Part shown: piece after piece, positions 1-3,383 of the stretch | How the letters are laid out: every line of letters begins with the position of its first letter | Position numbering within the stretch: position 1 is the stretch's first letter | Source of the DNA: Candidatus Thorarchaeota archaeon | GTDB taxonomy: Archaea; Asgardarchaeota; Heimdallarchaeia; Hodarchaeales; Hodarchaeaceae | Assembly (NCBI GenBank): GCA_048882505.1 | Contig: JBHLRO010000004.1 | Coordinates: 80,193 to 112,192 of the forward strand | DNA: 32,000 nucleotides | Direction of reading: 5' to 3' | Position numbers and translations under genes: made by a program | The notes under the pieces: model-generated | Told to the model about the DNA's origin: nothing | The model's database searches: none | What the model saw: the letters and a program-made list of their open reading frames with translations, nothing else

Positions 1-297
1 TCGGACTATGTACCTTTCTTGAATGATCGCAAGATTTGCTATCTCTTATTGGAAGGAGAAAAATTCGGAAGCCAGCCACTTTCAATCGAGGTAAAGCTCT
101 CAGTTATCGATTCCCCCAACTCAGCCGGTGTGATGATCGATGTAATCCGAGCCCTTAAGATAGCACAAGATAGAAACGTGGCAGGGCCCTTAACCTCTAT
201 TTCCTCATATGCATTTAAGCATCCACCGAAACAGGTGCCCGATTTCGAAGCACGCGATTTGGTTGAGCAGTTTATAGCGGGAGAGGTGGAGAGATGA
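1..297 (+). CDS. ino1: myo-inositol-1-phosphate synthase, C-terminal part (5' truncated by window edge)
   Basis: Frame is open from base 1 (SDYVPFLNDRK...). Contains the INO1 C-terminal motifs YVPFLNDRK, KLSVIDSPNSAG and YAFKHPP. Confidence 0.92.
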   Translation, partial: SDYVPFLNDRKICYLLLEGEKFGSQPLSIEVKLSVIDSPNSAGVMIDVIRALKIAQDRNVAGPLTSISSYAFKHPPKQVPDFEARDLVEQFIAGEVER

Positions 298-332
298 TCA
301 ATAAGTTGGCAATATTTCAGTGAGAGGATTAA

Positions 333-1271
333 GTGAACATAAAAGGCGCTCTTCGGGATTTTTATGACCTAACCCGACTCCCGCTTGGCATAATGGCAGG
401 GATCATGGGACTAACAGCAGGGATGATTGTCGTTCTCGTTCAGCGAAAAGCACCTGGCGAGCATGCGATCCTGGCAGTCTTTCGATTGTTACCTGAATAC
501 TGGGAACTCGCGGTCCTAGGACTTACTGTTCCATTTTTAATCGTGGGCGCATCGATGGCAATAAACGATTTCTATGATTTTTCTTCCGATCGGATCAATC
601 AGCGAATGGATCGCCCCTTGGTTCGCAATCCCTCCCTGAACCCCCAGTACGTCCTCTTCTTGGCCCTTTCGATGATCGCCATTGGAATAATTATCTCATT
701 CTTTCTGTTTGTGGACAATCTGTTGGTTACGATTGGCGTTGCAATATTTAGCTTCTTGTCGATATCTTATAATCTATGGACCAAAGAGATGGGTATTATT
801 GGTAACATGACGGTGGCCGCAAGCGATACTGCGCCTGCTATTTTGGCTCTGATTGCACTAAGGGGAACTGATCCTTCCACAGTCCTCCTAGTTCTTTCAA
901 TGTCTGGTATCACCTTTTTTGGGGTTGTTGGTCGTGAGCTAGTTAAGGGAGTGATGGACATTGAAGGGGATAGAATTACTAGATCAAATACATTTGCTGT
1001 GAGGTTTGGACCCATAAGAGCGGTTCAATTGGCATCCGTATTTTTCGTTATATTAGCAATTATCGCGCCTGTTCCGTTATTTGTGAAGTTTTACAATAAT
1101 TTGCTCTATGTGATTCTCATGGGAATTACTCTTGGCCTCTTTTTCTATAGCATTACTATTCTATATAAAGATCCGTCGGTAGAAAACGGAAAGAAGGCAA
1201 GGTCATACACTCGATTAGCGCTCTGGACAGGGGCATTATCCTTTTTGGCAGGTGCCCTCTTCTTACCTTAA
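333..1271 (+). CDS. UbiA-family prenyltransferase (DGGGP synthase-like)
   Basis: Asp-rich motifs NDFYDFSSDRIN..RPL and RELVKGVMDIEGD; multiple hydrophobic helices; GTG start with GAGAGG upstream. Confidence 0.9.
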   Translation: MNIKGALRDFYDLTRLPLGIMAGIMGLTAGMIVVLVQRKAPGEHAILAVFRLLPEYWELAVLGLTVPFLIVGASMAINDFYDFSSDRINQRMDRPLVRNPSLNPQYVLFLALSMIAIGIIISFFLFVDNLLVTIGVAIFSFLSISYNLWTKEMGIIGNMTVAASDTAPAILALIALRGTDPSTVLLVLSMSGITFFGVVGRELVKGVMDIEGDRITRSNTFAVRFGPIRAVQLASVFFVILAIIAPVPLFVKFYNNLLYVILMGITLGLFFYSITILYKDPSVENGKKARSYTRLALWTGALSFLAGALFLP

Positions 1272-1295
1272 TGTCATCCAATCTAGGTTGAAACG

Positions 1296-2690
1296 ATGTT
1301 TGGCGATCCGAGTTCATTCTGTCAACGGATAGCTAAACAAAGTCGACTTCTTGAAGGTGAAGAAGGGGTCAGAAAGATAATTTTGGAAATGTACCGCAGG
1401 CAAGACCATAAGATCTCAAACAAAGAACTCGCAAGACTTGTGAAGATTCCTGTCCCAGTGTTATCTGCTGTAAGAAGTGAGTTGTTAAATGCAGGATTCC
1501 TTGAAACGAAGAGTATAATATCTCCAGATGCCCTTAAATGGATCAAAACCGCCCTAAAGTTAGCCTACCCGTTTCCTTTCTTTCAGGAGTTTATTTCATC
1601 TCTGGATAGCCCCCTCTCTCAAACTTATTATGATTTTTTCAAACCAGTTGTCACCTATCTAGATCAAAGACCACCTCCTGCTTACGAATATGATCAGTCA
1701 AGAAGTACATTTGAAACTGTCCTGAAAAGGGCCTTGTTAATGCTTCTGAATGGAGATGTAGAGGGAAAAAAAATTGCTATTCTTGGTGATGATGATGGCG
1801 TCTCATTAGCACTCGCCCAGTTACAGTGCGCTGAAAGAATACTTGTTTTGGATATAGACCCTAGAGTTGTCGAATACATCGAGTCTTTTGGTACAGAATA
1901 TGGGTTGACTTCCGTTTTAGAAGCACGCAACTATGATATACGAGGGACATTGAGTGACCCCTGGCTTCACGGGTTTAATGTGTTCGAAACAGATCCCCCT
2001 TACACTGTTGCGGGGTTTCGCCTCTTTATTCAACAGGCTTTAAAATTGCTGGATCCATACAAAAGCGGAAAAGGATATATTTCGTTTGGAACTAAATCTC
2101 CCCATTCGACTTGGTTATGTCAACAGTATCTTCTAGAGAATGGATTTACAATAAGCGACTATTTTTCTGGATTTAATGAATATTTAGGATCTTCAATTTT
2201 GGGAAATAGATCCAACCTATATGTTGTTAGCAATGTACCGCAAAAATATAGCATTCCACAAAGCAAGCGCCCCAATCTTGCGATTTATACCGCAGATGAA
2301 GTACAAAAGAATAAAGATATGGTTAAAAACCTTCCGTCCGTAGGATTCCAGATTATCGCTGAATTTTATGGTGTCAAACATAAACTGCTTACAAGCGCAT
2401 CTCTACTCCAGGATATACTCCGACGTGGGATCGCTTTAAGCAGACTTAAGCTAGATGAACTATTTGTCAAAGAATACACTCCTTTTGGATTTTCAATTAT
2501 CGCAATATTAATCGAAAGCCATTGTCACCTACACACTTGGCCTGAACATCAGTATTTAGCATTAGATCTGTTTGTATGCGAAGAGCAAGAGAAAGCTGAA
2601 ACTTTGTACAACTTCCTGATAGATCAACTTGAACCAGAGGATTATCACTCAAGAAGATTGTTTCGAGGTACTCCAGAAAGGTTTTCTTAA
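1296..2690 (+). CDS. Fusion: BpsA-type (branched-chain polyamine synthase) aminopropyltransferase + C-terminal pyruvoyl-dependent AdoMet decarboxylase-like domain
   Basis: N-part has RPPPAYEYDQ, GDVEGKKIAILGDDD, VLDIDPR, ETDPPYT, FNEY as in BpsA. C-part from ~2340 has IIAEFYG...LIESHCHLHTWPEHQYLALDLFVC, with the ESH autocleavage site at 2514-2522. Confidence 0.88.
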   Translation: MFGDPSSFCQRIAKQSRLLEGEEGVRKIILEMYRRQDHKISNKELARLVKIPVPVLSAVRSELLNAGFLETKSIISPDALKWIKTALKLAYPFPFFQEFISSLDSPLSQTYYDFFKPVVTYLDQRPPPAYEYDQSRSTFETVLKRALLMLLNGDVEGKKIAILGDDDGVSLALAQLQCAERILVLDIDPRVVEYIESFGTEYGLTSVLEARNYDIRGTLSDPWLHGFNVFETDPPYTVAGFRLFIQQALKLLDPYKSGKGYISFGTKSPHSTWLCQQYLLENGFTISDYFSGFNEYLGSSILGNRSNLYVVSNVPQKYSIPQSKRPNLAIYTADEVQKNKDMVKNLPSVGFQIIAEFYGVKHKLLTSASLLQDILRRGIALSRLKLDELFVKEYTPFGFSIIAILIESHCHLHTWPEHQYLALDLFVCEEQEKAETLYNFLIDQLEPEDYHSRRLFRGTPERFS

Positions 2691-2717
2691 AAGTTAAAGC
2701 CGTCAAATGGTGAGATT

Positions 2718-3383
2718 TTGGCAAACGATCCAAAATTCAAACGAAAAACAAGTTCTGATTTCAATTTTTTCAACGAACTTAGCCGGAAATCAGTCCATTT
2801 GTTTGTGCTAATCATTCCACTTGCATATCACGTCTTGAATTTTGAATTGTGGATCATTCAACTCGGGTTGCTTGCCACCTTATTGGTTTTCATACCTTTG
2901 GAGTTTTATAGGCTTAGAATAAACCCTGACTTCTGGCTTAATTATCTAACCAGACAAGCTGAAAAAACGGAGCCTGCGAACTACGTTCTCGTCTCGATAG
3001 TATGGTTCCTGATATTATTGGGGGTGAACTTTTTTTATTCTATTGAGATGGCTGAGATGGCAATTGTGGCAACCCATCTTGGAGATTCTCTCGCTGCGCT
3101 TGTTGGTCGGGGTCTTGGCAAAAACCGATTACCCCTAACAGAAGGGAAGACCATTGAGGGTTATATAGCAGGAGTCATCGGAACATATACCGTGGGGTGG
3201 ATCTTCCTTTTATGGCTGGGAATTCCCTCACTACTGCTCCCCGTGGTACCCGCTCTCGCAGTCGGTCTTTTTGATTTCTTCGAAAACTTGCCCTTTTGGG
3301 CGGCAGATAATCTAATCCATCCTTGGGTAACTGTCCTAGTCATCTTTGCTTTTGATATGATAGGGATTCTCCCTTACCTCTAA
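2718..3383 (+). CDS. SEC59/DGK1/phytol-kinase-like CTP-dependent membrane kinase (cytidylyltransferase superfamily)
   Basis: RKSVHL at the N-terminus and GDSLAALVGR..GK..L....GKTIEG motif; polytopic; TTG start with GGTGA 5 nt upstream. Confidence 0.85.
   Translation: MANDPKFKRKTSSDFNFFNELSRKSVHLFVLIIPLAYHVLNFELWIIQLGLLATLLVFIPLEFYRLRINPDFWLNYLTRQAEKTEPANYVLVSIVWFLILLGVNFFYSIEMAEMAIVATHLGDSLAALVGRGLGKNRLPLTEGKTIEGYIAGVIGTYTVGWIFLLWLGIPSLLLPVVPALAVGLFDFFENLPFWAADNLIHPWVTVLVIFAFDMIGILPYL

Follow-up and report, generated by a model that had tools for sequence, protein, structure and literature searches.

A 32,000-nucleotide stretch of the genome of a Candidatus Thorarchaeota archaeon from the order Hodarchaeales (GCA_048882505.1, contig JBHLRO010000004.1, positions 80,193 to 112,192, or G000:C4:80193-112192 in our numbering; hereafter the window) carries near its start a gene, at 1296-2690 on the + strand, that fuses an aminopropyltransferase of the BpsA family to a pyruvoyl S-adenosylmethionine decarboxylase (AdoMetDC). 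We favor, with moderate confidence, the explanation that this fusion is a substitute for SpeD plus SpeE which makes a spermidine-type polyamine, and that it is co-expressed with inositol/isoprenoid-lipid genes in Hodarchaeales. Its transferase part represents a so far uncharacterised lineage among BpsA aminopropyltransferases, here termed type B, which in this organism is fused to AdoMetDC within a probable order-specific operon.

Profile searches matched the N-terminal part of the fusion to PF01861 (BpsA_C, 151 bits, covering only model positions 6-190 of 243) and the C-terminal part to PF02675 (AdoMet_dc, 87 bits against a cut-off of 25) and TIGR03330 (83.4 bits against a cut-off of 75.65). 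The aminopropyltransferase part consists of an N-terminal helical domain followed by the BpsA_C Rossmann domain, and includes the motifs GDDD (residues 164-167), DPPYT (233-237) and NEY (294-296), together with Lys267. Sequence matches in the PDB were to the BpsA enzymes of Thermococcus kodakarensis (Tk-BpsA) and Thermus thermophilus (Tt-BpsA), with E values of around 1e-28 (8.5e-28 for 5xnc). The AlphaFold model of the fusion (predicted local distance difference test, pLDDT, of 88, with a low-confidence linker at residues 320-350) returned Tk-BpsA as its best Foldseek match (5xnc_B, E 5.7e-20), and the AdoMetDC part was matched to the Thermotoga maritima AdoMetDC (1tlu; template modelling (TM) score of 0.88, root mean square deviation of 1.7 Å). 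Within this part lies an invariant IESH-x3-HTWPE-x10-C motif, with IESH at residues 406-409, and self-cleavage is predicted between Glu407 and Ser408 (nt 2514-2519). The spacing of the Ser, His and Cys residues is presumably equal to that of the T. maritima enzyme. Across 32 fused homologues the GDDD motif, Tyr236, Lys267, Ser408, His409, His413 and Cys428 are invariant. Hydropathy analysis found no hydrophobic segment in the fusion, which is thus predicted to be a soluble protein that lacks a membrane segment.

In the genome (4.3 Mb, 94.5% complete) the BpsA_C and AdoMet_dc domains occur once each, in the fusion gene. The absence of a spermidine synthase, originally noted for the window, extends to the whole genome, in which no PF01564 (SpeE) match was found. 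Within the GTDB genus 1 of the 21 genomes has a strong SpeE match, and across the phylum such matches are confined to a few families. The single genus member with strong matches, G067, holds two tandem SpeE copies (G067:C1:4527515-4528974) approximately 240 kb from its INO1-UbiA-fusion cluster, and these may be a later acquisition. Elsewhere in the genome, a deoxyhypusine synthase gene lies directly beside genes for a pyridoxal phosphate (PLP) decarboxylase and an agmatinase-like protein (C24:34411-37671; L052:175-3435). The decarboxylase is the only group-IV member of the genome, being LysA/ODC-like and scoring below the LysA cut-off, and the three genes probably form a cluster for hypusine and polyamine precursors. 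Apart from the fusion, the genome shows no candidate for producing the triamine that deoxyhypusine synthase normally uses. Since it is also the only source of decarboxylated S-adenosylmethionine (dcSAM) and the only aminopropyltransferase, a housekeeping polyamine role would be needed in any case.

We also considered a carboxyspermidine or carboxyaminopropylagmatine route to spermidine, which was unsupported: routes to spermidine that do not use dcSAM require an nspC-family decarboxylase, none of which scored above cut-off in 22 genomes of the genus, and the carboxynorspermidine synthase scores of the genome's four saccharopine-dehydrogenase-like proteins were far below cut-off. One of the four genes overlaps an agmatinase-like gene at C17:55273-57589 (L054:252-2568), and its product aligned over the full length with carboxynorspermidine synthase, though weakly (36 bits, with the cut-off at 800). 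This pair recalls the carboxyaminopropylagmatine route, but the nspC-type decarboxylase is absent.

Comparison of the fusion with characterised BpsA indicates that its acceptor site has been altered. BpsA is defined by the GDDD motif and by the acceptor-site residues Asp225, Glu259, Tyr290 and Tyr316; in Tk-BpsA the GDDD motif (Gly157-Asp160) positions the aminopropyl group of dcSAM, and this group is carried by an acidic cluster at the flexible C-terminus (Glu339-Glu345, the 'DEE' motif), which also determines substrate preference (2026 review, PMC12979288). A HMMER alignment of Tk-BpsA (5xnc) to the fusion placed GDDD at residues 164-167, Asp225 at Asp233, Tyr290 at Tyr296 and Glu259 at Lys267. 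Two of the three tested acceptor residues are therefore kept (Asp233 and Tyr296), while the Glu259 position is occupied by a Lys that is invariant in the fused family. The acidic carrier cluster is missing, as the sequence after NEY runs into the AdoMetDC part and Pfam positions 191-243 are unmatched. That two acidic acceptor residues have been lost together with the carrier tail would fit an acceptor that is smaller and less charged than spermidine.

When aligned, 38 BpsA-family proteins of Asgard archaea, drawn both from genomes that have a strong SpeE match and from genomes that lack one, fell into two types. Type A proteins have TDPPET, an Asp at the Glu259 position and a tail of the form RIETLRG...DEELASA, and are found in families with strong SpeE matches. 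Type B proteins, which include the window fusion, have DPPYT, a Lys or Arg in 'SFGxKxP', FNxYxGA and a conserved (I/L)YT motif, lack the acidic tail, and are the type found in sampled Asgard lineages without a strong SpeE match. After the (I/L)YT motif, type B sequences continue either into AdoMetDC, in the fused forms, or into a CxxC...CPxC zinc ribbon. A tree of the catalytic core parts type A from type B with a support of 0.89, and one group within it brings together the fusions of the genus, the unfused genes of the sister family and the fusions of families f20 and f31. The correlation between type and SpeE is imperfect, since G067 and some f20 genomes have both SpeE and type B, and because the sampled lineages are related we treat it as a pattern rather than a statistical result. 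Of the initial annotation's name for the gene, 'BpsA-AdoMetDC', the two domains (PF01861 and PF02675) stand, but the protein is no canonical BpsA, given DPPYT, Lys267 and the missing acidic tail; by its sequence, we place the fusion in the distinct type B subfamily.

Several variations on these two types were observed. The zinc-ribbon-like CxxC...CPxC tail occurs in unfused type B proteins of families f4, f7, f19 and f32 (L040-L045 and L048-L051), at the position that AdoMetDC takes in the fused forms, and a bacterial type B protein with a zinc ribbon is present in Rhodothalassium salexigens (P0067). One type A BpsA-like ORF (open reading frame) of unusual length, 466 residues, shares its contig with a strong SpeE match about 2 kb away (L114, G005:C64:10500-17000), which corresponds to the canonical pair of spermidine synthase and BpsA.

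The genomic partners of the two types also differ. Type A genes adjoin agmatinase-like genes. For type B, AdoMetDC is encoded adjacently in f7 and in the sister-family genome G079, and is fused in f20 and f31, while in three f4 loci that we read the type B gene is divergently adjacent to a gene for a LysA/ODC-like PLP decarboxylase (L043:7888-10412, L044:6394-8953 and L045:6507-9122; 230-267 bits, where LysA requires 298). The two f4 proteins may act as a diamine-forming and aminopropylating pair. Outside the order Hodarchaeales the recurring partners of type B are AdoMetDC or a PLP decarboxylase, and not lipid genes. In the sampled genomes that lack a strong SpeE match, the type B enzyme is the sole aminopropyltransferase. 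Family f7 (G080-G091, of the same class) has an INO1 match in 0 of 12 genomes, and type B therefore occurs independently of inositol.

A different setting was seen in about six close genomes of f20, where the fused homologue is approximately 35% identical to that of the window (L032:6027-12020 in G191; also L021, L024, L026, L028, L029, L033 and L034). In this row the fusion is preceded either by a flavin mononucleotide (FMN) reductase and an amine oxidase or by a PF04240 carotenoid-synthesis membrane protein, and is followed by a stand-alone 2-oxoacid_dh acyltransferase domain, a 118-residue ORF and a UbiE/CMAS-like methyltransferase. These genes could form a pathway in which a polyamine is oxidised, acylated or methylated. 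We rejected this neighborhood as independent support for a lipid role, as it is limited to these close relatives and other f20 loci differ.

In the window, the fusion gene is the third of four + strand ORFs (1-297, open at the 5' end, 333-1271, 1296-2690 and 2718-3383), which are separated by spacers of 35, 24 and 27 bp. These coordinates confirm the four co-directional genes of the initial annotation, and profile matches back its naming of INO1 and of a UbiA/DGGGP-synthase-like enzyme; for its SEC59/DGK1-type kinase there is a marginal match to PF01148 (CTP_transf_1; 29.1 bits against a cut-off of 24). The features are as follows.

1..297, + strand: C-terminal 98 codons of INO1, the gene for myo-inositol-1-phosphate synthase, MIPS (PF01658; TIGR03450).
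333..1271, + strand: UbiA prenyltransferase resembling DGGGP synthase (DGGGPS, geranylgeranylglycerol-phosphate geranylgeranyltransferase), 312 residues, GTG start (PF01040; PRK12884 below cut-off).
1296..2315, + strand: aminopropyltransferase part of the fusion, residues 1-340 (PF01861; PDB sequence and Foldseek matches).
2328..2690, + strand: pyruvoyl AdoMetDC part of the fusion, residues ~345-464 (PF02675; TIGR03330).
2718..3383, + strand: CTP_transf_1-family membrane protein, polyprenol/diacylglycerol-kinase-like, 221 residues, TTG start (PF01148).
3397..4122, - strand: convergent gene, 241 residues, outside the unit and marking its 3' boundary; no Pfam match.

The window edge truncates INO1, whose complete gene (G000:C4:79404-80489, 361 residues) begins 789 bp before the window and is preceded by an AT-rich intergenic region of 210 bp and then by a small unrelated ORF. 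The position of the full gene behind this intergenic region makes INO1 the first gene of the unit, and the convergent gene at 3397-4122 brings the unit to an end. Each of the three spacers holds a GGAG/GGTG-like motif and in none of them was a run of five or more T found, which together make co-transcription plausible. A scan for promoters and terminators gave counts at the level of shuffled sequence, using bacterial patterns that do not cover archaeal signals.

Comparison of the locus across genomes reveals how far this arrangement extends. The fusion is present in 19 of the 21 genomes of the genus (51-86% identity), and the order INO1-UbiA-fusion-kinase, followed by the convergent gene, was found at all 18 genus loci with readable flanks. 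Flanking genes with no relation to the four are conserved to a similar extent, an upstream 142-residue ORF at 15/18 loci and the convergent 241-residue gene with orf210 at 11/12, so that synteny within the genus reflects general collinearity and carries little weight. More distant loci are rearranged. The metagenomic contig L124, with a fusion 45% identical to that of the window, has INO1-fusion-kinase with UbiA absent, a different upstream flank and a 10-nt overlap between the fusion and kinase genes; the convergent gene is again found beside the kinase gene in L124 and L125. The sister family (f2) has INO1-UbiA-unfused BpsA-like-Ras GTPase in G078 and INO1-BpsA-like-AdoMetDC in G079, where the BpsA-like gene is 31% and INO1 72-74% identical to those of the window, and its kinase orthologue is located elsewhere, beside purine or S-adenosylhomocysteine-hydrolase genes. 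In every Asgard genome outside the order with both positions listed, INO1 and the BpsA-family gene were on different contigs or hundreds of kb apart. Conservation of gene order across Asgard genomes, the check proposed in the initial annotation, thus gave a mixed result: the four-gene order is upheld in the genus, and the INO1 adjacency in the sister family and in L124, but the adjacency is absent beyond the order wherever both positions were listed. Judged from layout and sequence, the four genes appear to be a real operon kept across Hodarchaeales, with co-transcription inferred from the layout.

The lipid-related genes of the cluster were then compared with their paralogues. The 98-residue C-terminal piece of INO1 scored 111 bits against TIGR03450, and the full ORF (L031:11405-12490) 110.6 bits against PF01658. 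Copies of INO1 that are 60-83% identical to that of the cluster occur in 364 of 400 Asgard genomes. A second INO1 paralogue in the same genome (C1:502209-503261) is 36% identical to the cluster copy, and two INO1 matches are also present in many Asgard genomes. The UbiA protein has ~7 hydrophobic segments by hydropathy analysis, matches PF01040 at 99.9 bits and contains both Asp-rich motifs (NDFYDFSSD and DIEGD; P0003), with an atlas structure match to UbiA clusters at a TM score of 0.80. Its best NCBIfam match was the DGGGPS-like PRK12884 (155.6 bits against a cut-off of 269), and it scored 93.5 against a cut-off of 296 and 83.2 against 353 for the DGGGPS equivalogs NF009521 and NF009522. A paralogue at C10:17914-18792 reached 193.9 and 158.2 for the same two models, which led us to reject the cluster UbiA as the housekeeping DGGGPS. 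The UbiA paralogues of the genome include five that are DGGGPS-like, in addition to those resembling heme O synthase, MenA and DPPR synthase.

The kinase-like protein has ~6 hydrophobic segments, and one of the atlas clusters sharing the top score (0.93) bears the name 'diacylglycerol/polyprenol kinase family'. Its GDSLAALVGR...GKTIEG and DNL motifs resemble those of kinase-type members. A role for this fourth gene as CDP-archaeol synthase was rejected, since PF01864 (CarS) matches another gene, on C67. Two CDP-alcohol phosphatidyltransferases are likewise encoded outside the cluster, on C2 and C30. With the best DGGGPS candidate, CarS and the CDP-alcohol phosphatidyltransferases all located elsewhere, the cluster is not the core archaetidylinositol pathway. 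Orthologues of UbiA at an identity of at least 45%, and of the kinase gene at an identity of at least 38%, were found only in families f1 and f2. We therefore describe the cluster as MIPS together with two putative accessory membrane enzymes that are order-specific.

We propose the following scheme for the fusion. All four genes are most likely driven by one promoter in the 210-bp region 5' of INO1. The C-terminal domain would cleave itself at Glu407|Ser408 to give the pyruvoyl enzyme, which would decarboxylate S-adenosylmethionine (SAM), and the N-terminal type B domain would then transfer the aminopropyl group from dcSAM onto a small soluble amine, probably putrescine or agmatine, which the PLP decarboxylase and agmatinase-like genes of C24 may provide. 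This would yield spermidine, either directly or by way of N1-aminopropylagmatine and its conversion by a ureohydrolase, and the spermidine would be used by deoxyhypusine synthase. The fusion would in this manner constitute a self-contained polyamine module that replaces SpeD and SpeE, both lacking in the lineage. Its seat among lipid genes may serve to co-express the supply of a polycation with head-group and isoprenoid-lipid synthesis, with no chemistry shared between them; the data are compatible with such co-regulation of polyamine and membrane synthesis.

A number of observations weigh against this scheme. With the changes in the acceptor site and the missing tail, the acceptor of type B need not be a polyamine. 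The searchable literature contains no biochemistry on any type B member, and indeed nothing on the type B subfamily, a BpsA-AdoMetDC fusion or aminopropylated lipids. Four saccharopine-dehydrogenase-like genes, one beside an agmatinase-like gene, are unexplained by it. Deoxyhypusine synthase is no strict proof of a need for spermidine, as haloarchaea have been proposed to use a route that does not depend on spermidine. In addition, the adjacency of INO1 and the aminopropyltransferase gene persists in four arrangement variants of the order, those of the genus (g1), L124, G078 and G079, with differing flanks, which suggests selection for the linkage, and the cluster's UbiA and kinase genes are paralogues restricted to the order, occurring only where the cluster is present.

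These last two observations also count in favor of lipid-directed chemistry. The initial annotation had suggested that the aminopropyltransferase modifies a lipid head group; type B would then move the aminopropyl group of dcSAM onto a head group or intermediate made by its operon partners, for instance an inositol-phosphate or isoprenoid-ether lipid, giving a cationic lipid. The linkage to INO1 at the level of the order, with or without UbiA and the kinase, the cluster-specific paralogues, the 10-nt overlap in L124, the altered acceptor site (Tyr in place of Glu after DPP, Lys at the Glu259 position and no acidic tail) and the f20 sub-clade neighborhood (carotenoid-synthesis-type protein or amine oxidase, acyltransferase and methyltransferase) can all be read in its favor. 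However, the suggestion found no positive support. The fusion lacks a membrane segment and is the genome's only dcSAM source and aminopropyltransferase; type B occurs in f7 in the absence of INO1 and elsewhere sits beside AdoMetDC or a PLP decarboxylase; the f20 neighborhoods vary and are confined to close relatives; every characterised BpsA-family member acts on polyamines (PMC12979288); and no aminopropylated lipid was found in the literature search. We consider lipid- or inositol-directed aminopropylation very unlikely, and give slightly less credence again to its fullest form, in which the fusion, UbiA, the kinase-like protein and MIPS would constitute one pathway to an aminopropylated inositol/isoprenoid-ether lipid with a new cationic archaeal head group.

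If the acceptor is a polyamine, it could also be spermidine itself, obtained by uptake or by an unrecognised dcSAM-independent route and extended by the fusion, as in BpsA, to a long-chain or branched polyamine. The match in sequence and fold to BpsA at the family level and the retention of GDDD, Asp233 and Tyr296 agree with such an activity, and the four saccharopine-dehydrogenase-like proteins, with the one full-length, weak carboxynorspermidine synthase match beside the agmatinase-like gene, hint at another source of spermidine. Yet that match is far below its cut-off and the nspC-family decarboxylase is absent from the genus, the acidic tail and Glu259 that are hallmarks of BpsA are missing, type B is found in sampled lineages that lack SpeE while type A is the type that co-occurs with it, and known branched polyamines are products of thermophiles (PMC12979288). 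True long-chain or branched polyamine synthesis thus appears unlikely. We hold it similarly improbable that the four genes are unrelated housekeeping genes in an inherited order, neighbors by descent with no co-transcription or shared regulation. The comparable conservation of flanks and cluster in the genus, the absence of the linkage outside the order and the separate location of the sister-family kinase gene would be expected of such a history, but it accounts poorly for spacers of 24-35 bp that lack a T-run, for the overlapping genes of one variant and for an INO1-aminopropyltransferase pair that is kept in f2 and L124 despite changed flanks and inner genes and a divergence of the aminopropyltransferase to 31% identity.

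A role of the fusion as a SpeD-plus-SpeE substitute would have consequences beyond this locus. Hodarchaeales and the other sampled Asgard lineages without a strong SpeE match appear to lack the SpeE-type spermidine synthase and to rely on type B of the BpsA family. If type B is indeed their primary spermidine synthase, it would add to the routes that reach spermidine without SpeE. The eukaryotic spermidine synthase (SpdSyn) and AdoMetDC would in that case not derive from a host like the Hodarchaeales, which are placed near eukaryotes, among the closest archaea. The tie between the enzyme, INO1 and the lipid genes at the level of the order provides a lead on the coordination of polycations with anionic inositol lipids and, at low odds, on a new lipid. 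Either of the current database names, 'adenosylmethionine decarboxylase' or 'N4-bis(aminopropyl)spermidine synthase', probably gives an incomplete description of the fusion.

We compared the fusion and its cluster to known systems. The nearest precedent for aminopropylation of a lipid is BtaA of betaine-lipid synthesis, which transfers the 3-amino-3-carboxypropyl group of SAM to diacylglycerol; BtaA belongs to an unrelated family and uses SAM rather than dcSAM. The archaeal inositol ether-lipid pathway (MIPS, DGGGP synthase, CarS and archaetidylinositol-phosphate synthase) shares with the cluster a MIPS and a DGGGPS-like prenyltransferase, here adjacent and followed by a CTP_transf_1-superfamily membrane protein, but the best DGGGPS candidate (C10), CarS (C67) and the CDP-alcohol phosphatidyltransferases (C2 and C30) are outside the cluster.

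Structurally the closest system is BpsA, the N4-bis(aminopropyl)spermidine synthase of T. kodakarensis and T. thermophilus (EC 2.5.1.128; PDB 5xnc and 6j27), with which the fusion shares PF01861, the two-domain fold, GDDD, the Asp of TDPP (Tk-Asp225) and Tyr290, and presumably dcSAM as the donor. The fusion differs in having Lys in place of Tk-Glu259, DPPYT in place of DPPET and AdoMetDC in place of the acidic tail, in falling within the separate type B clade, and in its genomic background, which is devoid of the SpeE that would supply spermidine; its Hodarchaeales host, unlike the BpsA hosts, is likely no thermophile. Characterised BpsA-family enzymes use a ping-pong mechanism and not direct SN2 transfer (PMC12979288). 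In function, the proposed counterpart is the pair SpeD and SpeE, by which prokaryotes usually make spermidine. The AdoMetDC of the fusion is a regular class 1 enzyme with an ES cleavage site, and the same overall reaction, SAM plus diamine to triamine, is proposed for the fusion. Relative to this pair, the fusion has a transferase from outside the SpeE family and places both activities in one polypeptide.

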